Sequence record: PZ789432.1
Strand: one strand, 5' to 3'
Length of the DNA: 44,996 nucleotides
From: a phage
In this document: positions 1 to 44,996 of the stretch, in pieces
How the letters are laid out: every line of letters starts with the position of its first letter
Numbering within the stretch: the stretch's first letter is position 1
Position numbers and translations under genes: made by a program
The notes under the pieces: model-generated
Seen by the model: only the letters and a program-made list of their open reading frames with translations
Database searches by the model: none
Told to the model about the DNA's origin: nothing

Positions 1-257
1 GCCCTCGCCGGGTTGCCCCCATATGGGGTAGATCGGCGGTTGACCTAGGAATTGGGCTGGGCTGGTCCGTCTTCGACGGGTGGGCGAGGGCTTGCCGAGG
101 TCTGCTCTTAGTGGCTGCACAAGGAGAACGCCTAGGAAGCGCTAGGGCACGCCTTAGTATTGGACAAGGTGATTGCCTTAGTGAAGCCTCTTAGTGCATT
201 CCTTAGGTCATTCAGGGCGTTTATGAGGGATTGACAGGGTGGATGCGTGTGTGGGCT
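1..257. repeat. left direct terminal repeat of the linear phage genome
   Basis: 1..257 recurs in the same orientation at 44742..44996. Contains the perfect palindrome CCCCATATGGGG at 17..28. The two copies differ by one substitution and a 2-nt indel at the inner edge (ggatgcgtgtgtgggct vs ggatgggtgtgggct). Confidence 0.85.
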
Positions 258-3436: not shown

Positions 3437-6064
3437 ATGCAAGACCTACACGCTATTCAACTTCAACTTGAAGAAGAAATGTTTAACGGCGGTATCCGTC
3501 GCTTTGAAGCGGACCAACAACGCCAGATTGCATCCGGTAATGAATCAGACACGGCATGGAATCGCCGCTTATTGTCCGAGTTAATCGCGCCAATGGCTGA
3601 AGGTATTCAGGCTTATAAGGAAGAGTACGAAGGCAAGCGCGGTCGTGCACCACGTGCATTGGCTTTCATTAACTGCGTAGAAAATGAAGTGGCAGCGTAT
3701 ATCACGATGAAAATCGTAATGGATATGCTTAACACTGATGTAACCTTGCAGGCTATAGCCATGAATGTAGCTGACCGCATTGAGGACCAAGTACGTTTTA
3801 GCAAGCTGGAAGGTCACGCCGCCAAATACTTTGAGAAAGTTAAGAAGTCACTTAAGGCAAGTAAGACTAAATCATATCGCCATGCGCACAACGTAGCGGT
3901 CGTGGCTGAGAAGTCAGTAGCTGACCGTGACGCTGATTTCTCTCGCTGGGAGGCGTGGCCTAGAGATACCTTGCTACAAATTGGTATGACCTTGCTAGAA
4001 ATACTGGAAAATAGTGTATTCTTCAATGGTCAGCCTGTCTTTCTTCGCACCTTGCGCACTAATGGTGGCAAGCATGGCGTTTACTACTTACAGACTAGCG
4101 AACACGTGGGTGAATGGATAACTGCATTTAAAGAGCACGTAGCTCAGCTGAGTCCAGCCTATGCACCTTGCGTTATTCCTCCGCGTCCGTGGGTTTCTCC
4201 GTTTAATGGTGGCTTTCACACCGAGAAGGTGGCAAGTCGCATCCGTCTAGTAAAAGGTAACCGTGAGCACGTCCGTAAGCTGACTAAAAAGCAAATGCCA
4301 GCGGTTTACAAGGCTGTTAACGCCTTACAAGCTACTAAGTGGCAGGTTAACAAGGAAGTATTGCAGGTAGTAGAAGATGTTATTCGTCTAGACCTCGGTT
4401 ATGGTGTACCTTCCTTTAAGCCGCTCATTGACCGCGAGAACAAACCAGCTAACCCTGTTCCTCTTGAGTTCCAGCACCTGCGAGGCCGTGAACTTAAAGA
4501 GATGCTAACGCCGGAACAATGGCAAGCCTTTATAAACTGGAAAGGAGAATGTACCAAGCTGTATACCGCTGAAACTAAGCGCGGAAGCAAGTCGGCGGCG
4601 ACCGTTCGCATGGTTGGACAAGCCCGTAAATACAGCCAGTTTGACGCAATTTATTTTGTGTATGCACTGGACAGCCGTTCACGCGTTTATGCGCAATCTA
4701 GCACGCTCTCGCCGCAATCAAACGACTTAGGCAAGGCATTGCTCCGTTTTACCGAAGGGCAGCGTCTTGATAGCACTGAGGCGCTTAAGTGGTTTTTGGT
4801 GAACGGGGCGAATAACTGGGGTTGGGATAAGAAAACTTTTGACGTGCGCACCGCTAACGTGCTGGATAGCGAATTTCAAGACATGTGCCGCGACATTGCA
4901 GCGGATCCGCTGACCTTCACTCAATGGGTAAATGCTGATTCCCCTTATGGCTTCCTTGCATGGTGCTTTGAATATGCGCGTTATCTGGATGCACTGGACG
5001 AAGGAACGCAAGACCAATTCATGACGCACCTACCCGTCCATCAAGATGGTAGTTGCTCTGGTATCCAGCACTATAGCGCGATGTTACGAGATGAAGTAGG
5101 TGCGAAAGCAGTAAACCTTAAGCCTTCTGACTCCCCTCAAGATATTTATGGCGCGGTTGCGCAGGTTGTTATCCAGAAGAATTACGCCTACATGAATGCA
5201 GACGACGCAGTGACTTTCACATCCGGAAGCGTCACACTTACAGGTGCAGAACTGCGTAGCATGGCTAGTGCGTGGGATATGATAGGAATCACTCGCGGCC
5301 TGACCAAAAAGCCCGTAATGACACTACCTTATGGCAGCACACGTCTAACCTGCCGTGAGTCAGTGATTGATTATATCGTTGATTTAGAAGAAAAAGAGGC
5401 CCAACGAGCTATTGCGGAAGGGCGTACCGCCAATCCTGTACACCCTTTTGATAATGACCGTAAGGACAGCCTGACACCTAGCGCAGCTTATAACTATATG
5501 ACAGCTTTAATCTGGCCTTCTATTTCGGAAGTGGTTAAAGCTCCTATAGTGGCGATGAAAATGATTCGTCAGCTTGCCCGTTTCGCAGCTAAAAGGAATG
5601 AAGGCTTAGAGTATACCTTGCCTACTGGCTTCATCTTGCAACAAAAGATTATGGCTACTGATATGCTCCGCGTATCCACTTGCCTGATGGGAGAAATCAA
5701 GATGAGTCTCCAGATTGAAACGGACGTAGTGGATGAAACGGCTATGATGGGCGCTGCTGCTCCTAACTTTGTGCATGGTCATGATGCCAGTCACCTTATC
5801 TTAACGGTCTGCGACCTTGTTGATAAAGGGATTACATCTATCGCAGTAATTCATGATTCTTTTGGCACTCATGCAGGTCGCACCGCAGACCTACGTGATA
5901 GTCTAAGGGCAGAAATGGTGAAGATGTATCAAGGCCGTAACGCTCTGCAAAGCCTGTTAGATGAGCATGAAGAACGCTGGTTAGTAGACACCGGAATCCA
6001 AGTGCCAGAGCAAGGAGAGTTTGACCTTAACGAAATCTTAGTATCTGACTATTGCTTCGCATAA
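3437..6064 (+). CDS. single-subunit DNA-dependent RNA polymerase (SP6-type)
   Basis: 875 aa; N-terminus [32 protein letters not shown] and C-terminus ...[12 protein letters not shown]...[10 protein letters not shown] closely match SP6 RNAP as I remember it; T7-family motifs present ([39 protein letters not shown]). Confidence 0.97.
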
Positions 6065-6073
6065 TATTAATAG

Positions 6074-6104
6074 GCCATTCCTTAGGGAGTGGCCTTTTCT
6101 TTTA
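6074..6104 (+). terminator. intrinsic terminator after the RNAP gene
   Basis: Hairpin ggccattcc-ttag-ggagtggcc (9-bp stem, one G-U pair) followed by TTTTCTTTT. Confidence 0.6.
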
Positions 6105-6137
6105 CCTATTACCTGTAACATTTAATTAACATAACCG

Positions 6138-6153
6138 TGTCTCACACGTGAGA
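6138..6153. repeat. 16-bp palindrome GTCTCACACGTGAGAC
   Basis: 7-bp inverted arms GTCTCAC/GTGAGAC; lies just upstream of a phage promoter. Confidence 0.8.
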
Positions 6154-6156
6154 CTT

Positions 6157-6179
6157 ATTTACCGGACACTATAGGATAA
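6157..6179 (+). promoter_or_regulatory. phage RNAP promoter (atttaccggacactatagg)
   Basis: Matches the genome-wide consensus ATTTACYGGACACTATAG; predicted +1 G at 6174. Confidence 0.7.
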
Positions 6180-6320
6180 CCGTCGGAGACGGAAAGAAAG
6201 GGAAGATAAAGGATATAAAAGGAAGTAATAGGTATTAAAGGTTATATAGGTTTACCTAGGAATACCTATTACCTTCTTCCTTCCTCTTATTACTACTTAA
6301 AGGAAGGGCAGACCTAAGTT

Positions 6321-6336
6321 GTCTCACATGTGAGAC
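6321..6336. repeat. 16-bp perfect palindrome GTCTCACATGTGAGAC
   Basis: Same family as 6138..6153; just upstream of a second phage promoter. Confidence 0.8.
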
Positions 6337-6341
6337 TTCGT

Positions 6342-6364
6342 ATTTACCGGACAATATAGATAAG
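6342..6364 (+). promoter_or_regulatory. phage RNAP promoter variant (atttaccggacaatatagataag)
   Basis: One core mismatch (C to A); second of two tandem promoters upstream of the gene 1.1-like ORF, as phi1.1A/phi1.1B in T7. Confidence 0.55.
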
Positions 6365-6389
6365 ACTAACTTACTTTGGAGATTTAACC

Positions 6390-6518
6390 ATGCGTAACTT
6401 TGAGAAGATGACCCGTAAAGCTAACCGTTTTGACATGGAAGAAGGGCAGACGAAAGGCAAGAAGCTGAATAAGCCTGTCCGTGACCGTGCATCTAAACGC
6501 GCAGCATGGGAGTTCTGA
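6390..6518 (+). CDS. T7 gene 1.1-like small basic protein (42 aa)
   Basis: MRNFEKMTRKANRFDMEEGQTKGKKLNKPVRDRASKRAAWEF resembles T7 gp1.1 as I remember it; SD GGAG upstream; below ORF-track cutoff. Confidence 0.6.
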   Translation: MRNFEKMTRKANRFDMEEGQTKGKKLNKPVRDRASKRAAWEF

Positions 6519-6521
6519 GTT

Positions 6522-6740
6522 ATGGCTAAATACAGAATCAAGACCTGTTTAAATAGTCACGGGCAAGAATTCTACGTAGTGCAACGTAAAGTATTAGGCT
6601 TAATATGGCTCACTTGTATGATGCCTATTGGCTATACTGATACAGAGGCTATCTTCTGCACCGAAAGGGATGCAAAGAAGTTTATCTCTAAGCGTAGAAA
6701 AGCTGACTCTTACCAACCTAGAATTATTAAGGTGAACTAA
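6522..6740 (+). CDS. hypothetical protein (72 aa)
   Basis: ORF track; between gene 1.1-like and primase-helicase. Confidence 0.55.
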   Translation: MAKYRIKTCLNSHGQEFYVVQRKVLGLIWLTCMMPIGYTDTEAIFCTERDAKKFISKRRKADSYQPRIIKVN

Positions 6741-8728
6741 TGGCTATTATTAATAACATCCCGTGCCCTGCCTGTCAAAAGAATGGACATGATATTACTG
6801 GCAACCATCTTATGATATTTGAGGATGGCGCTGGTTACTGTAACCGTGGTCACTTCCATGATAATGGTAAGCCTTATTACCATAAGCCAGAGGGTGGTAT
6901 CGAGATAACCGAATTGCCTATTACTGGCAATATCAAATATACACCTTCTCAATTCAAAGAAATGGAGAAGGAAGGGAAGATAAGCGACCCTAAGCTACGC
7001 GCCATCGCACTTGGTGGTATGCGTATGAAAGATCGTTGGGAGGTCATGAATGAGCAAGAAAGGGCAGACCAAGAAGCAGAGTGGAAGCTTGATGTTGAAT
7101 GGTTCCTCACGCTTAAGCGTAAGAACCTTGTATCCCGTCACATTCGAGGTGACATCGCAGCAATGTACGATGTGCGCGTTGGACACGATGAAGAGGGAAG
7201 AGTCAACCGTCACTATTATCCACGATATGAAAAGGGTGTGCTTGTTGGAGCAAAATGCCGGACGTTGCCGAAGGATTTTAAGTTCGGACACCTAGGTAAA
7301 CTCTTTGGTATGCAAGACCTTTTCGGTATGAACACTTTGTCTCACGTGTTAGACAAGGGGAGACGAAAGGATTGCTTGCTTATTGTAGGCGGTGAACTTG
7401 ATGCACTAGCAGCGCAGCAGATGCTCCTTGATTCTGCCAAGGGTACTAAGTGGGAAGGCCAGCCATACCATGTATGGTCTGTCAACAAAGGCGAGTCTTG
7501 TCTTGAAGAGATAGTGCAAAACCGTGAGCATATCGCCCAATTCAAGAAGATTATATGGGGTTTTGATGGAGATGAGGTAGGGCAGAAGCAGAATCAGCAA
7601 GCGGCTCGCCTGTTTCCTGGCAAATCCTATATCCTTGAATACCCCTCTGGTTGCAAAGATGCTAACAAGGCATTGATGGCTGGCAAGGCTAAAGAGTTTG
7701 TAGATGCATGGTTTAATGCCAAGTCATCTGATGAAGTCTTTGGTAGCCAGATTAAATCTATCGCATCTCAAAGGGATAAGCTCAAGGCTGCACGTCCAGA
7801 GCAAGGACTATCATGGCCTTGGCCTAAGCTGAACAAGGTCACGCTAGGTATTCGTAAGAACCAACTTATCATTGTAGGCGCAGGCTCTGGTGTAGGTAAG
7901 ACTGAGTTCCTTCGTGAAGTAGTTAAGCACCTCATTGAAGAACACGGTGAATCTGTAGGCATCATTTCTACAGAAGACCCGATGGTCAAGGTGTCCCGTG
8001 CTTTTATCGGCAAGTGGATTGATAAGCGCATTGAGTTACCGCCAACCAACGACCCGAAAGAAGATGGATACCGTGAGGTGTTCGACTACACCGAGGAAGA
8101 GGCTAACGCCGCCATTGATTATGTAGCTGATACAGGTAAGCTGTTTGTAGCTGACCTAGAGGGTGACTATTCGATGGAAAAGGTAGAGCAAACTTGCCTA
8201 GAGTTTGAGGCTATGGGCATTTCTAATATCATCATTGATAACTTAACGGGGATTAAATTAGATGAGCGTGCTTTTGGTGGGAAGGTTGGTGCACTTGATG
8301 AATGCGTCAAGCGGATTGGTACTATCAAAGACCGACACCCGGTTACTATATTCCTTGTATCACACCTTACACGTCCTCCGGCAAACCGTACCCAACACGA
8401 AGAAGGTGGCGAGGTTATCCTTTCTGACTTCCGAGGCTCAGGCGCTATCGGATTCTGGGCATCTTACGCCTTGGGGATTGAGCGTAATACAAGAGCTGAA
8501 ACGCTTGACGAAAGGACTACCACGTACATCTCATGTGTCAAAGACCGCGACCAAGGAATATTTTCCGGTACTCGTATAATGCTTAAAGGTGATATTGCTA
8601 CTGGTCGATTACGTGAACCAGAGCAAAGATCTCGACCGTTTGATACTGGTGCTCCAAAAGAACAAACTGTACCAGAAGAAGTAGTGGATAAAGGAGGATT
8701 TATTGCTGACGAAGTTGAAGAGTTTTGA
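6740..8728 (+). CDS. DNA primase/helicase (T7 gp4-like)
   Basis: 662 aa; N-terminal zinc ribbon CPACQ...CNRGH; Walker A VGAGSGVGKTEF; acidic C-terminus ending EEF. Confidence 0.93.
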   Translation: MAIINNIPCPACQKNGHDITGNHLMIFEDGAGYCNRGHFHDNGKPYYHKPEGGIEITELPITGNIKYTPSQFKEMEKEGKISDPKLRAIALGGMRMKDRWEVMNEQERADQEAEWKLDVEWFLTLKRKNLVSRHIRGDIAAMYDVRVGHDEEGRVNRHYYPRYEKGVLVGAKCRTLPKDFKFGHLGKLFGMQDLFGMNTLSHVLDKGRRKDCLLIVGGELDALAAQQMLLDSAKGTKWEGQPYHVWSVNKGESCLEEIVQNREHIAQFKKIIWGFDGDEVGQKQNQQAARLFPGKSYILEYPSGCKDANKALMAGKAKEFVDAWFNAKSSDEVFGSQIKSIASQRDKLKAARPEQGLSWPWPKLNKVTLGIRKNQLIIVGAGSGVGKTEFLREVVKHLIEEHGESVGIISTEDPMVKVSRAFIGKWIDKRIELPPTNDPKEDGYREVFDYTEEEANAAIDYVADTGKLFVADLEGDYSMEKVEQTCLEFEAMGISNIIIDNLTGIKLDERAFGGKVGALDECVKRIGTIKDRHPVTIFLVSHLTRPPANRTQHEEGGEVILSDFRGSGAIGFWASYALGIERNTRAETLDERTTTYISCVKDRDQGIFSGTRIMLKGDIATGRLREPEQRSRPFDTGAPKEQTVPEEVVDKGGFIADEVEEF

Positions 8729-9404: not shown

Positions 9405-9420
9405 GTCTCACATGTGAGAC
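9405..9420. repeat. 16-bp perfect palindrome GTCTCACATGTGAGAC in a terminator-like context
   Basis: Flanks extend the pairing (gcttgtctcaca/tgtgagacaggc), followed by tcttatt. Confidence 0.8.
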
Positions 9421-9459: not shown

Positions 9460-10143
9460 ATGTATAAATTAGTATTGAATGTAGGTGATTATGTTCGTAA
9501 CATCAATGAAGCCTCACGTCGTTATCGTTGCCGTGGTGTAGTGGCTCGTGTAAGTGAGAACATGTATCATGTAGAATATGATGATGGTATTAAGGCTTCT
9601 TATCACAAGAAAACCGCACATAAATATCTTGAAAAGGTTGTAGAGGTAAACAATCAATGTAAGTGCATACATGATGAGGTTTGCGATAAATGTGCTCGCC
9701 AGATGCTTAAGAATTTCCTAGCCCCTCTTTATTATGGTGCTGGTCCTCAAACACTAGCAGAGTACATGGCAGAAAAGAAAACCACACTCAAGAAAGAGCG
9801 TCGCAATGTAATCACTGGTAAGACTCAAAGTGAGATGATTAAGCAATGTGGCACTGCATTAGGTGTTACACAGTTCAATACTCGTGCATTGGGTAAATCC
9901 ACAGGGCAAGCTATGGTGAAAATTGGTGAAGCTATGATGCAACCAAATGTACCTGTGCGAATCGTGGATATTGACCATGCAATCACAGAGCATGGTACAC
10001 CACGCCGTGTAGCTAACAATCATTTTGCCGACACTATAGAAGACATTATTCGTAAGCAAGGGTTGAAGGGTCTTCACATCTTAAATGGTGAAGAATTACT
10101 GTACCTACCTATCGTTACTGAAGAAACCTACGTGAATATCTAA
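9460..10143 (+). CDS. hypothetical protein (227 aa)
   Basis: ORF track 9454..10143 (TTG); first ATG at 9460 with SD GGAG; contains a Cys cluster CKCIHDEVCDKC. Confidence 0.7.
   Translation: MYKLVLNVGDYVRNINEASRRYRCRGVVARVSENMYHVEYDDGIKASYHKKTAHKYLEKVVEVNNQCKCIHDEVCDKCARQMLKNFLAPLYYGAGPQTLAEYMAEKKTTLKKERRNVITGKTQSEMIKQCGTALGVTQFNTRALGKSTGQAMVKIGEAMMQPNVPVRIVDIDHAITEHGTPRRVANNHFADTIEDIIRKQGLKGLHILNGEELLYLPIVTEETYVNI
10022..10044 (+). promoter_or_regulatory. phage RNAP promoter located inside a CDS (ttttgccgacactatagaagac)
   Basis: Core GACACTATAGAAGA identical to the consensus; lies within 9460..10143. Confidence 0.5.
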
Positions 10144-10548: not shown

Positions 10549-10564
10549 GTCTCACACGTGAGAC
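10549..10564. repeat. 16-bp palindrome GTCTCACACGTGAGAC in a terminator-like context
   Basis: Extended stem ggttgtctcac/gtgagacagcc followed by tttcatc. Confidence 0.8.
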
Positions 10565-12445: not shown

Positions 12446-13448
12446 CAAAGATGACGGAGAGTGGCGTGTTCCAGCTGTTGCTATTAGTATTGGCACTTCT
12501 ACGTTCCGTATGCGTCATCGTAACGTGGTTAATATTCCTGCCCGTGGCTTGTATCCTTTACGTGATTTATTCATAGCAGGGAAAGGCAAGCTAATCCTTG
12601 GTTGTGACGGTGCAGGTCTTGAACTGCGTGTCCTGTCTCACTTCATGAATGACCCTGAGTACCAAGAGATTGTACTGCACGGTGATATTCATACGCATAA
12701 CCAGATGAAGGCTGGTCTTCCTAAGCGTGATATGGCGAAGACGTTTATATACGCCTTCCTCTATGGTTCTGGTATAGCCAACCTTGCAGCAGTCTGCGGT
12801 GTTACTGAGGAAGAAATGAAGGAAGTTGTGGCAAGATTCGAGATTGAACTACCGTCTCTTGCACGTCTTCGTGAGAATGTTATCGCACAAGGTAACAAGT
12901 TTGGCTACCTGCAAGCACCTGATGGGCATTGGGGTCGCATCCGCATGTCTGGTGGTGAACTTAAAGAGCACACGATGCTTAACGTATTACTCCAGATGAC
13001 TGGCTCTTTGTGTATGAAATATGCATTAGTCAAGGCATTTGCAGTAATGCGCAAGGAAGGTGTAGCTTTGGATGCTATGGGAAATCCTTGTGGTGTGGCT
13101 AACGTGCATGATGAAATCCAGATGGAAGTTCCTGAAGAGGAGGTCTTGTATCTTAACTACGACCTACCTTTCACCTTAGATGGGTTCGAAACAGAGAAGG
13201 CTGCTGTGAAAGCAGTTTTCGATGCAGAGGAGAAACGTGTTCATGTGGATTCTGAAGGACGTATGTGGTCTGCTGCAAACCTCGTTAGCGTTGATGCTGA
13301 TGCTGGTGTATTGCATTGCCAGCGCCGTTATCACCGTGCAGGTCATATCATTGCCGACGCCATGACTTGGGCAGGGCAGTATCTGAAGATGCGTTGCCCG
13401 ATGGCAGGAGAATATAAGATTGGCGCAAGCTGGAAGGAAACACACTGA
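12168..13448 (+). CDS. DNA polymerase, fragment 4 of 4: palm/fingers; frame-disrupted
   Basis: Motif A GCDGAGLELRVLSHF, TSTFRMRHRNVVNIP (T7 TGRATHAFPNLAQIP), KTFIYAFLYG, VHDEIQ. Reliable homology starts near 12430; the first ~260 nt of this ORF overlap fragment 3. Confidence 0.85.
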   Translation: MKSPSLYGKKEPHVKVKQYLIGAWVSLHGTYSYPVVVRYSTVVTLKPSTRRGTWPSQAGVRKCRGLVPVAFNKELGINAQQYYERYGCWPTSDKDDGEWRVPAVAISIGTSTFRMRHRNVVNIPARGLYPLRDLFIAGKGKLILGCDGAGLELRVLSHFMNDPEYQEIVLHGDIHTHNQMKAGLPKRDMAKTFIYAFLYGSGIANLAAVCGVTEEEMKEVVARFEIELPSLARLRENVIAQGNKFGYLQAPDGHWGRIRMSGGELKEHTMLNVLLQMTGSLCMKYALVKAFAVMRKEGVALDAMGNPCGVANVHDEIQMEVPEEEVLYLNYDLPFTLDGFETEKAAVKAVFDAEEKRVHVDSEGRMWSAANLVSVDADAGVLHCQRRYHRAGHIIADAMTWAGQYLKMRCPMAGEYKIGASWKETH

Positions 13449-13730: not shown

Positions 13731-13753
13731 ATTTACTGTACACTATAGAAGGA
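13731..13753 (+). promoter_or_regulatory. phage RNAP promoter variant (atttactgtacactatagaagg)
   Basis: Consensus with G to T at -9; +1 G at 13748. Confidence 0.6.
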
Positions 13754-13817
13754 AAGCCTAGACAATCTAGGTTTATAAGGTAGTATAGGTAATTAAGTAA
13801 ATATAGGAGATATAAAC

Positions 13818-15614: not shown

Positions 15615-15630
15615 GTCTCACGTGTGAGAC
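15615..15630. repeat. 16-bp palindrome GTCTCACGTGTGAGAC
   Basis: Same family; 15 bp upstream of a phage promoter. Confidence 0.8.
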
Positions 15631-32163: not shown

Positions 32164-32179
32164 GTCTCACATGTGAGAC
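32164..32179. repeat. 16-bp perfect palindrome GTCTCACATGTGAGAC in a terminator-like context
   Basis: Extended stem cttgtctcaca/tgtgagacagg followed by tcttt. Confidence 0.8.
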
Positions 32180-36984: not shown

Positions 36985-38882
36985 TGGCTAAGGCAAGAGA
37001 ATCACAAGCGGAGGCTCTTGCCAGATGGGAGATGCTACAGGAGTTACAGCAGACCTTTCCTTACACAGCGGAAGGTTTGCTTCTCTTTGCAGATACAGTT
37101 ATTCATAACTTAATTGCAGGCAACCCTCATCTGATTCGTATGCAGGCTGATATCTTGAAGTTCCTATTTTACGGACACAAGTACCGCCTCATCGAAGCGC
37201 CTCGTGGTATCGCTAAGACAACACTATCAGCAATCTATACGGTATTCCGTATTATTCATGAACCGCATAAGCGTATCATGGTTGTGTCCCAAAACGCCAA
37301 GCGAGCAGAGGAAATCGCAGGTTGGGTAGTTAAAATCTTCCGTGGCTTAGACTTTCTTGAGTTTATGCTGCCGGATATCTACGCTGGGGACCGTGCATCC
37401 GTTAAGGCGTTTGAGATTCATTACACCCTACGTGGTAGTGATAAGTCTCCTTCTGTATCCTGTTACTCAATCGAAGCAGGTATGCAGGGTGCTCGTGCTG
37501 ATATTATTCTAGCGGATGACGTAGAGTCGATGCAGAATGCTCGTACGGCAGCGGGCCGTGCCTTGCTTGAGGAACTGACTAAGGAGTTTGAATCTATCAA
37601 CCAGTTTGGGGATATCATTTACCTTGGTACACCTCAGAACGTAAACTCTATCTACAACAACCTACCTGCTCGTGGTTACTCTGTTCGTATCTGGACTGCG
37701 CGTTACCCTTCAGTAGAGCAAGAGCAATGTTATGGCGACTTCCTTGCACCTATGATTGTTCAAGATATGAAGGACAACCCAGCACTTCGCTCAGGGTACG
37801 GGTTGGATGGTAATAGTGGTGCACCTTGTGCCCCTGAAATGTATGATGATGAAGTCCTGATTGAGAAGGAAATCTCTCAGGGTGCTGCTAAGTTCCAGCT
37901 TCAGTTCATGCTTAACACTCGCATGATGGATGCTGACAGATACCCATTACGCCTGAACAATCTAATCTTCACCTCGTTTGGTACAGAGGAAGTCCCTGTG
38001 ATGCCTACGTGGAGTAATGATTCCATAAACATCATTGGTGATGCACCTAAGTATGGTAACAAGCCTACGGATTTCATGTACAGACCTGTAGCTCGCCCAT
38101 ACGAATGGGGTGCTGTCTCCCGCAAGATTATGTATATTGACCCTGCGGGTGGCGGTAAGAATGGGGATGAGACGGGTGTGGCTATCGTATTCCTGCACGG
38201 CACATTCATTTACGTGTATCAGTGCTTCGGTGTGCCGGGTGGATACCGCGAATCGTCCCTGAATCGCATTGTGCAGGCCGCAAAGCAGGCGGGTGTTAAA
38301 GAGGTATTCATTGAGAAGAACTTTGGTCATGGCGCGTTTGAGGCGGTAATTAAGCCGTACTTTGAACGAGAGTGGCCTGTAACTCTGGAAGAGGATTACG
38401 CCACCGGACAGAAAGAATTGCGTATCATTGAGACGCTGGAGCCGCTCATGGCAGCCCATAGGCTTATCTTCAATGCAGAAATGGTGAAGTCAGACTTTGA
38501 GTCGGTACAGCACTATCCGCTTGAACTACGCATGTCCTACAGTCTTTTCAATCAAATGTCGAACATAACGATTGAGAAGAACAGCCTCCGGCACGATGAC
38601 CGCCTAGACGCCCTGTATGGCGCTATACGGCAATTAACTTCTCAGATAGACTATGACGAGGTTACACGGATTAATCGCCTCAGAGCGCAGGAGATGCGAG
38701 ATTACATCCATGCTATGAACACACCTCATCTACGCAGGGCAATGCTATATGGGGATTACGGTACTGAGCGAAGAGTGACCAACACTTCCGTAGCGATGCA
38801 GCAGCGAGTTTACGGGCAGAACTACCGAAATAAATCGGCAAGCAGAAATACACTTTCTGCAAGGATTTCAAGGACTTATTAA
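36984..38882 (+). CDS. terminase large subunit
   Basis: 633 aa (ORF track 36981, ATG 36984); position and size as T7 gp19; acidic nuclease-type segments in C-terminal half. Confidence 0.9.
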   Translation: MAKARESQAEALARWEMLQELQQTFPYTAEGLLLFADTVIHNLIAGNPHLIRMQADILKFLFYGHKYRLIEAPRGIAKTTLSAIYTVFRIIHEPHKRIMVVSQNAKRAEEIAGWVVKIFRGLDFLEFMLPDIYAGDRASVKAFEIHYTLRGSDKSPSVSCYSIEAGMQGARADIILADDVESMQNARTAAGRALLEELTKEFESINQFGDIIYLGTPQNVNSIYNNLPARGYSVRIWTARYPSVEQEQCYGDFLAPMIVQDMKDNPALRSGYGLDGNSGAPCAPEMYDDEVLIEKEISQGAAKFQLQFMLNTRMMDADRYPLRLNNLIFTSFGTEEVPVMPTWSNDSINIIGDAPKYGNKPTDFMYRPVARPYEWGAVSRKIMYIDPAGGGKNGDETGVAIVFLHGTFIYVYQCFGVPGGYRESSLNRIVQAAKQAGVKEVFIEKNFGHGAFEAVIKPYFEREWPVTLEEDYATGQKELRIIETLEPLMAAHRLIFNAEMVKSDFESVQHYPLELRMSYSLFNQMSNITIEKNSLRHDDRLDALYGAIRQLTSQIDYDEVTRINRLRAQEMRDYIHAMNTPHLRRAMLYGDYGTERRVTNTSVAMQQRVYGQNYRNKSASRNTLSARISRTY

Positions 38883-38902
38883 TTACTGGACACTATAGAA
38901 GG
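38880..38902 (+). promoter_or_regulatory. phage RNAP promoter (ttaattactggacactatagaagg)
   Basis: Consensus; +1 G at 38897; followed by AT-rich motifs shared with 6226..6270 and hairpin gggtgtac-tcct-gtacaccc. Confidence 0.75.
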
Positions 38903-39037
38903 AAGGCCCAGATAATAAGAGAAAATAATAGGTAATATATAGGTTAACCTAGGTTATATAGGTATGCCTTAGTATGGGTGTACTCCTGTACACCCTATTC
39001 CTTACTACCTTACTATATTTACATAATAGGAGAGACA

Positions 39038-44678: not shown

Positions 44679-44741
44679 TCCTGTACAAGGATTAACCAAG
44701 TCAAAATTTTGATGTAGGCGTGTGTCAGCTCTCTCGCCCTC

Positions 44742-44996
44742 GCCCTCGCCGGGTTGCCCCCATATGGGGTAGATCGGCGGTTGACCTAGGAATTGGGCTG
44801 GGCTGGTCCGTCTTCGACGGGTGGGCGAGGGCTTGCCGAGGTCTGCTCTTAGTGGCTGCACAAGGAGAACGCCTAGGAAGCGCTAGGGCACGCCTTAGTA
44901 TTGGACAAGGTGATTGCCTTAGTGAAGCCTCTTAGTGCATTCCTTAGGTCATTCAGGGCGTTTATGAGGGATTGACAGGGTGGATGGGTGTGGGCT
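44742..44996. repeat. right direct terminal repeat
   Basis: Same orientation copy of 1..257; preceded by extra ctcgccctcgccctcgcc units that the truncated left copy does not show. Confidence 0.85.

Follow-up and report, generated by a model that had tools for sequence, protein, structure and literature searches.

The intergenic region at about 6.2 kb of this phage genome is one copy of a conserved promoter-associated element of the SP6-type phages, in which a phage promoter is followed by a 5' stem-loop, by an AT-rich array whose repeats are approx. 10 bp long, and then by a hairpin and a pyrimidine tract free of G. The element most likely represents a T7-type, transcription-primed replication origin, an assignment that we put forward tentatively, and its array is probably recognised by a putative sequence-specific partner. 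The position of the region, its promoter-consensus matches, composition, periodicity and conservation, the concerted change of its repeat units and a control analysis of T7 were determined directly.

The window analysed, PZ789432.1 with its 44,996 bases, is a complete Vectrevirus genome (K1E/K1-5 group, Molineuxvirinae, SP6 branch of the T7 supergroup). It carries a direct terminal repeat of about 257 bp at both ends, its large ORFs all lie on the + strand, and its segment 5900-6800 shares 91-97% identity with many Vectrevirus-type phages. The region under study is located between the RNA polymerase ORF (3437-6064, 875 aa) and the primase/helicase ORF, which starts at 6740. An earlier note on this DNA had placed it, more narrowly, between a terminator of the RNA polymerase gene and a gene 1.1-like ORF, and both of these could be verified. 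The intrinsic terminator (6072..6103, + strand; 10-bp stem, 4-nt loop and T-run) is found 3' of the RNA polymerase gene. A terminator is annotated at the equivalent place in MK373771, and the hairpin was present in 9 of the 9 aligned phages, with varying sequence. It is the end of the early, host-polymerase transcription unit. On the other side, the ORF at 6390..6518 (+ strand, 42 aa) matched the Pfam family PF08200, 'Bacteriophage 1.1 protein' (E = 7e-16), and shares 58.5% identity with T7 gp1.1.

Two phage promoters are predicted on the + strand, P1 at 6157..6179 (ATTTACCGGACACTATAGGATAA) and P2 at 6342..6364 (ATTTACCGGACAATATAGATAAG), with the inferred +1 positions at G6174 and G6359, respectively; in the case of P1 we take the start site to be the one given by analogy with the SP6 promoter consensus. 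When the promoter core TTTACNGGACANTATAG was searched genome-wide, 11 + strand matches were obtained against 0.05 expected, P1 and P2 among them, in agreement with the tandem promoters claimed earlier. P2 is a non-consensus variant, with a C to A change at -5, and its ortholog in the SP6-type phages is likewise off-consensus (TATTG). Orthologs of the P1 and P2 promoters were found in all relatives compared, and two promoters upstream of the gene 1.1 homolog are an expected feature of this phage group. The palindrome said to precede each promoter was also observed. Its 16-bp copies at 6139..6154 (GTCTCACACGTGAGAC) and 6321..6336 (GTCTCACATGTGAGAC) lie 19 bp upstream of P1 and 22 bp upstream of P2, and the genome has 8 copies of the palindrome GTCTCACAYGTGAGAC, counted as 16 strand-matches where 0.27 would be expected. 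Palindrome and promoter together form a module that is directly duplicated, 182-185 bp apart.

Two further conserved parts flank P1. The block upstream of it (6103..6131, + strand) contains the repeat unit in inverted form, as TACCTATTACCT at 6103-6114, which is identical to 6263-6274. This block is almost invariant in Vectrevirus, Zindervirus and the Klebsiella Ulip-type phages, and among the compared genomes it was absent from PM85 and ZK1. Downstream of P1, the 5' stem-loop CCGTC-GGA-GACGG (6180..6192, + strand) corresponds to +7 to +19 of the P1 transcript. It showed no change across 9 phages, and compensatory variants of it were found in T205P4 (CCATC/GATGG) and in ZK1 (CCTTC/GAAGG).

The earlier description of a purine-rich and then pyrimidine-rich, AT-rich segment between the promoters was borne out by the base composition. 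In the left arm the purine content of a 50-bp window reaches 86%, the highest value in the genome, a run of 64 nt without C (6191-6254), the longest genome-wide, overlaps the array, and the pyrimidine-rich tract at 6261..6301 (+ strand, 41 nt) is the second-longest G-free run genome-wide. The arms are 70-74% AT compared to 55% for the genome, which is about the 97th percentile and below the AT maximum. The segment between P2 and the start codon of gene 1.1 is 25 bp long and 68% AT. The proposed inverted repeat of about 12 bp proved to be the perfect core (GTAATAGGTATT at 6225-6236, AATACCTATTAC at 6261-6272) of a longer one spanning 6219..6278 (+ strand), whose arms, 6219-6236 and 6261-6278, extend to 18 nt with 89% complementarity. 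It is predicted to form a hairpin of approx. 17 bp in the P1 transcript or, alternatively, a DNA cruciform; folding of the P1 transcript gave a dG of -46 kcal/mol and a z of about -2.4.

The purine arm is also a periodic array with a period of about 10 bp, a feature that the earlier note had missed. The array (6197..6262, + strand) consists of seven units of approx. 10 bp that share the core WAGGWA. Their AGG triplets begin at 6199, 6210, 6220, 6230, 6239, 6248 and 6258, that is, at spacings of 11, 10, 10, 9, 9 and 10 bp (about 9.7 bp), and TRF reported a period of 10. Chains of at least four WAGGW motifs spaced 9-11 bp are present genome-wide only at 6209-6261 and 38929-38963, both of them immediately 3' of phage promoters; no chain longer than 2-3 motifs arose in 200 shuffled genomes. 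Compared with this phage, exactly one unit, AAAGGTAATA, is inserted in T205P4, and a K1E isolate has exactly one extra unit, a duplicated one of the TACCTAGGAA type.

Signals of other kinds were searched for in the same region. No match to the DnaA box TTATCCACA with up to 1 mismatch was detected on either strand of 6060-6400. Rfam gave no match at gathering thresholds genome-wide, and chance-level hits only in 6050-6420. The top strand of the region contains a single GCA, at 6308, a trinucleotide that is expected there by chance; it is kept in Vectrevirus and most Zindervirus, and is not found in BP12B, the Ulip-type phages and PM85. Tseng, Frick and Richardson are said to have found in 2000 that the SP6 primase uses 5'-GCA-3'; in a T7-type origin, a primase site on the displaced strand would serve to start the first leftward primer.

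The element is present in further copies in the genome. The second copy (38880..39028, + strand) begins where the terminase large-subunit ORF ends, at its stop codon, and comprises a promoter (38880-38902), an array (38924-38972), a hairpin (38976-38995) and a G-free tract (38989-39028). Motifs related to those at 6.2 kb had already been noticed after this promoter, and they turned out to be highly specific: GGTTATATAGGT has exactly two occurrences in the genome, at 6240 and 38952 (0.01 expected), and AATAGGTA was found only at 6227 and 38927, plus its inverted copies at 6103 and 6263. This copy has the array without a long hairpin (z about -0.6), and its last unit, GCCTTAGT, shares its core with a dense CTTAG(T/G) array beside the terminal repeat. 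A third, weaker copy (13731..13793, + strand) lies approx. 280 bp after the DNA polymerase ORF and has a promoter (13731-13748), a 5' hairpin (13757-13771) and three units (13768-13793). No other 120-bp window of the genome is as AT-rich as the one in which it lies, and only one C-free run is longer than the one found there. The 6.2-kb copy is the largest of them, with seven units, two promoters and two palindromes. The label 'primary', which the earlier note had attached to it, could not be retained, given two to three copies of the element and the report in PMC4837284 of an SP6 origin at the DNA polymerase gene, where Dobbins et al. (2004) are reported to have suggested a bidirectional replication origin. 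The location suggested for SP6 lies near the weak third copy at 13.7 kb.

The layout of the element is retained in Vectrevirus, Zindervirus, the Ulip-type phages, Acadevirus PM85, ZK1, Eracentumvirus Nifs112 and Edwardsiella WAG25P1, and weakly in Vibrio R15Z. K1E, K1-5, SP6, BP12B, UAB_Phi78, Kenya-K30, two Klebsiella Ulip-type phages and Proteus PM85 have the order of the parts in common, which is terminator, palindrome, promoter, 5' stem-loop, array, pyrimidine tract, (palindrome), second promoter, small ORF and primase/helicase. At least 80% of the intergenic region is kept in 99 of the 102 matching phage records, and its identity between genera is about 70-73%. A G-free tract follows the array in every lineage examined and is among the longest genome-wide in this phage, SP6, PM85, ZK1 and R15Z. 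The arrays of ZK1, Nifs112 and WAG25P1 are not C-free, thus the purine-rich, C-free character is not universal. In a scan of IMG/VR with the 14-mer CCGTCGGAGACGGA nearly all matches were chance matches in unrelated contigs, and the right context was present at 3 loci only.

The sequence of the repeat unit itself is replaced from lineage to lineage. The unit is TAGGTATNCC in Klebsiella ZK1, TAGGTCTA / TAGGTAGG in Pantoea Nifs112, AGTAAGCTA in Edwardsiella WAG25P1 and, weakly, of the TAGAGC type in Vibrio R15Z, and in each of these four phages the promoter that comes directly after the terminase large-subunit gene is followed by that phage's own unit as well. When all phage-promoter leaders were compared within each genome, the leader after the RNA polymerase gene was closest to the one after the terminase gene in 6 of the 7 genomes (scores 25-40, background 6-16). 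In this phage and in SP6, the next-best leader was that of the promoter after the DNA polymerase gene, with scores of 19 and 23, respectively. In Nifs112 the two copies within the genome scored 40 against 24 for the best ortholog, and in WAG25P1 33 against 21, while in ZK1 the margin was small (34 vs 33). The two copies thus evolve in concert, which is most simply explained by one sequence-specific partner common to both or by gene conversion.

Some candidate explanations of these patterns were discarded. The RNA polymerase is not a suitable reader of the array with units that would co-vary with promoter specificity, since the promoters of Vectrevirus, SP6 and PM85 differ and their TAGGTA unit is the same. 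A CsrA or Shine-Dalgarno-type RNA motif was set aside, as most units contain GGU and not GGA, and the units of WAG25P1 and R15Z are devoid of the motif. A single conserved long RNA hairpin was likewise rejected as the common feature, because the 38.9-kb copy is without one. GC/AT skew was dismissed as an origin predictor: the minimum in the T7 control fell at 9536, compared to an origin at about 5.9 kb, and the t-values were only 2.5-3.3. The detrended cumulative GC skew reaches its minimum slightly to the right of the element in both this phage (6957) and SP6 (6689), and the skew is confounded by the boundary of early and middle transcription.

In the origin model that we tentatively prefer, the biochemical steps are extrapolated from T7 biochemistry and base composition, and the specific reader of the repeats is proposed from the concerted change of the unit. 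The phage RNA polymerase would initiate at P1, and the C-free, purine-rich RNA would form an R-loop by remaining paired with the AT-rich template, which melts easily. The RNA polymerase might then stall or be released at the hairpin and the pyrimidine tract, the RNA would be extended rightward by the phage DNA polymerase, and the primase/helicase would be loaded onto the displaced top strand. P2 may in addition simply drive gene 1.1 and the primase/helicase gene, and additional or secondary origins, like phiOR and phi6.5 of T7, would be provided by the 38.9-kb and 13.7-kb copies. The composition of the region (70-74% AT, the longest C-free run and the most purine-rich window) favours melting and R-loop formation. 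The T7 mechanism needs no sequence-specific repeats, therefore it leaves the arrays and their concerted change unexplained.

The most serious rival is that the element acts as RNA. It would then be a structured 5' leader that is processed in an RNase III-type manner or that stabilises or regulates the middle-gene mRNAs, its array being bound by an RNA-binding factor, and the promoters would be ordinary class II promoters of gene 1.1 and the primase/helicase gene. We find this somewhat unlikely, but a role in the leader or in processing has to be taken seriously. T7 has its R1.1 RNase III site at exactly this inter-promoter position, and the pairing of promoters with RNase sites is common in T7 (PMC6938266). 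In all lineages the P1 transcript folds into a hairpin that is long but imperfect; z ranges from -2.0 to -5.1, and the stem is approx. 17 bp here and approx. 25 bp in the other lineages. The compensatory changes in the 5' stem-loop also suit an RNA, and so does the sense orientation of all copies in mRNA 5' leaders, which fits an RNA role equally well. Moreover, the unit AATAGG(T/A)A resembles the phage's own ribosome-binding context AATAGGAG. However, an R1.1-type site is expected to have an irregular hairpin of approx. 20 bp or more just downstream of a phage promoter, and a long hairpin of this type (stem of approx. 17 bp) was obtained at 6219-6278 and not at 38.9 kb; thus a long duplex is not a shared feature of the copies. 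The pairing register varies by lineage, which indicates general dyad symmetry instead of conserved base pairs, and the spacing of about 9.7 bp, the indels of whole units and the inverted unit outside the P1 transcript all point to DNA. The lack of any Rfam family match also speaks against this reading.

A more far-reaching version of the origin model, which we regard as rather improbable in its full form, is that the SP6-type phages use sequence-specific recognition at promoter-linked origins, unlike T7 as it is understood. A putative phage protein or replisome domain would read the units of approx. 10 bp and would have co-evolved with them; the units concerned would be TAGGTA, AGGTAYNCC, TAGGTCTA, AGTAAGCTA and CTAGAGCAT in the different lineages. 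If this were true, the elements after the polymerase and the terminase genes would form a matched set of iteron-like origins, and the factor reading them would be a new class of initiator or loader for T7-family replisomes.

It is quite unlikely, in our estimate, that the arrays are DNA sites for a phage protein which acts in concatemer processing or packaging, or in transcription control, and not in replication initiation. A packaging role is ascribed to the phiOR region of T7, one copy of the element lies right after the terminase genes, and the arrays would be comparable to the repeat arrays next to the terminal repeats. The GCCTTAGT core is common to the CTTAG(T/G) array beside the terminal repeat. 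The concerted change of the units, implying a sequence-specific partner, would suit such a protein as well. However, the largest copy is found 6 kb away from the left end and is flanked by the RNA polymerase and primase genes, a place for which we know of no packaging role in the T7 group. The binding protein itself is putative, and a simple protein site would not need the strict coupling to a promoter in one orientation. The last alternative, that ordinary promoters are accompanied by hitch-hiking hairpins and by AT-rich repeats made by slippage without a function of their own, is very improbable: slippage readily yields tandem repeats and unit-sized indels do occur among close relatives, but the layout is held at two syntenic positions in at least seven lineages despite the replaced unit sequence, the intergenic region is still about 70-73% identical between genera, and its composition is extreme genome-wide. 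The origin, RNA and protein-site readings are not mutually exclusive. The corresponding T7 region combines two promoters with an RNase III site and is an origin as well.

To our knowledge, replication initiation in the T7 supergroup has been mapped essentially only for T7. SP6- and K1E-type phages are of use in biotechnology, through the SP6 RNA polymerase, and as therapeutic phages for infections with capsulated E. coli and Klebsiella. No origin study of SP6, K1-5 or K1E was found in the literature searched. The regular array of approx. 10 bp, its recurrence at the phiOR position and the concerted, lineage-specific change of the unit were also absent from that literature, and since key genome papers lay outside the search, a prior description is possible. 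Specialists already expect T7-like logic in these phages, thus the surprise lies mainly in the regular, lineage-specific arrays. A defined, portable element in which a promoter is combined with a repeat array would provide a testable origin for the SP6/K1E-type phages and a route to the protein that reads the repeats, and the paired, co-varying copies amount to natural specificity-swap experiments. It might also offer an orthogonal replication module, like the T7-origin plasmids (PMC8373140).

Among the known systems, the iteron-type origins (the pSC101, P1 and F plasmids, lambda ori) resemble the element in having 5-8 short, helically phased direct repeats beside an AT-rich, easily melted segment, and a lineage-specific unit is what would be expected with a co-evolving binding protein. 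The units, however, are approx. 10 bp long here and 17-22 bp there, the Rep or O-like initiator of those origins has only a putative counterpart here, no DnaA boxes are present in 6060-6400, and the array is strictly tied to a phage promoter and transcribed. The mitochondrial LSP/CSB region provides an analogy only, drawn from composition and established knowledge. There too, a single-subunit RNA polymerase of the T7 family transcribes a strand-asymmetric stretch into a G-containing, C-free RNA, and strand-asymmetric, C-free transcripts are prone to R-loop formation. In contrast to that region, the element has no G-quadruplex-type run and no sequence relationship to it, and its strand asymmetry is not conserved in all lineages.

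The closest comparison is with T7, in which phi1.1A/B are the primary origins, phiOR and phi6.5 are secondary ones, and a phage promoter is essential to every origin (PMC8373140). Both genomes have the RNA polymerase gene, two tandem rightward phage promoters and the gene 1.1 homolog in this order, phi1.1A (5848) and phi1.1B (5923) being situated between gene 1 and gene 1.1. A hairpin-forming segment lies between the tandem promoters in both, and an AT-rich stretch follows a promoter (73% AT in T7, 70-74% here). The architecture of the T7 primary origin, which the earlier note had recognised in the region, therefore holds as far as gene order and tandem promoters are concerned, and is matched only imprecisely for the AT-rich segment: in T7 this segment (78 bp, 73% AT), where RNA gives way to DNA in a T7-type origin, comes after phi1.1B, whereas here the AT-rich array is between the promoters. 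Because P2 is followed by no more than 25 bp, the repeat between the promoters does not correspond in position to the AT-rich segment of T7. The stretch from phi1.1A to phi1.1B is 54% AT in T7. We take it to be the R1.1 RNase III site (Dunn and Studier 1983). Homology of the region to this stretch was considered on the basis of a 13/14 match, ATT(G)ACCTTCTTCC, just before the second promoter, and was rejected as too weak (p about 0.03). T7 also differs in having irregular CTTAAG or CTTTAAG motifs and no regular 10-bp array, in lacking flanking 16-bp palindromes, and in the place of the host-type terminator, which directly precedes the element here and is found in T7 (TE) after gene 1.3. Experimental origin activity belongs to T7 only.

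The similarity extends to the other promoters. In T7, phiOR (39229) is located directly after gene 19, the terminase large subunit, and in both cases the leaders of the post-terminase and post-polymerase promoters are related; the post-terminase promoter of the SP6-type phages differs in that it also drives genes over about 6 kb downstream. The core scan detected no phage promoter close to the left genome end, so an equivalent of phiOL is lacking. In the T7 leader control, phi1.1B was closest to phiOL (20), phiOR (17) and phi6.5 (17), and the remaining promoters scored 7-16, including 16 for phi4.7, which is not known as an origin; the margins are small. Since phi1.1B has its highest scores with phiOL, phiOR and phi6.5, the origin-associated promoters of T7 share leader features, and the same pattern of leader similarity is seen for the origin promoters of T7 and for the three elements of the SP6-type phages.

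A 16-bp palindrome, GTCTCACAYGTGAGAC, was found in eight copies in the window, at 596-611, 6139-6154, 6321-6336, 7339-7354, 9405-9420, 10549-10564, 15615-15630 and 32164-32179. Syntenic copies are present in SP6 (nine), in the Proteus phage PM85 (six) and in the Klebsiella phage ZK1 (seven), one of the shared positions being located in the interior of the primase/helicase ORF, and related palindromes also occur in the Pantoea phage Nifs112 and the Vibrio phage R15Z. The half-site reads GTCTCAC in the window, whereas it is GTCYAAC in SP6, PM85 and ZK1, and the change is concerted, every copy of one genome being altered together. In case of the copies at 9405, 10549 and 32164 the stem is extended to 13 bp via G.U pairs on the + strand, and these three are situated directly upstream of ribosome-binding sites. 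Seven of the nine SP6 copies show a U.G-compatible asymmetry, which suggests that the palindrome acts as an RNA hairpin read by a sequence-specific partner. In the annotation of MK373771 one palindrome copy is given as a terminator.

The second promoter of the candidate origin following the RNA polymerase gene departs from the consensus in every lineage compared. In the window (6342-6364) a C to A change is seen at -5, while in SP6 (6287-6304) and in the Salmonella and Klebsiella phages TATTG is found in place of TATAG. This recurrent departure suggests a conserved promoter that would be weak or differently regulated. A 72-aa ORF (6522-6740; gene 8.5 of K1E), for which no match was obtained in Pfam, separates the gene 1.1 homolog from the primase/helicase gene. 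Judged by its absence from many close relatives, e.g. ACG-C91 and K1-5, this ORF is a dispensable insertion.

At 13731-13793, approx. 280 bp 3' of the DNA polymerase ORF, a promoter was detected together with a 5' hairpin and three units of the TAGGT type, and the SP6 ortholog of this promoter is found at 12542. The element lies inside both the most AT-rich 120-bp window and the second-longest C-free run of the genome. According to a secondary source (PMC4837284), Dobbins et al. 2004 reportedly suggested an SP6 origin at the DNA polymerase gene, and 13731-13793 may represent the neighbourhood of that origin.

In T7, the leaders of the promoters associated with origins (phiOL, phi1.1B, phi6.5 and phiOR) have the highest mutual similarity among all 17 promoter leaders and share CTTAAG or CTTTAAG motifs. 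A translational-enhancer-like context is known upstream of the T7 ribosome-binding sites, and the leader motifs overlap it.

Both ends of the window (1-257 and 44741-44996) carry a direct terminal repeat, approx. 257 bp in length, from which it follows that the window comprises a linear genome in full. Within and just to the right of this repeat at least 14 CTTAG(T/G) motifs form a dense array with 10-14 bp spacing (120-220 and 320-450, also 44860-44960), and the same core occurs in GCCTTAGT, the last unit of the second origin-like element at 38.9 kb. SP6 carries a CTTAGT array of 12-bp period at 260-313, and the terminal repeat of ZK1 contains an array of 10-bp period. The CTTAG(T/G) array of the window is analogous to the repeat arrays which adjoin the terminal repeat of T7.
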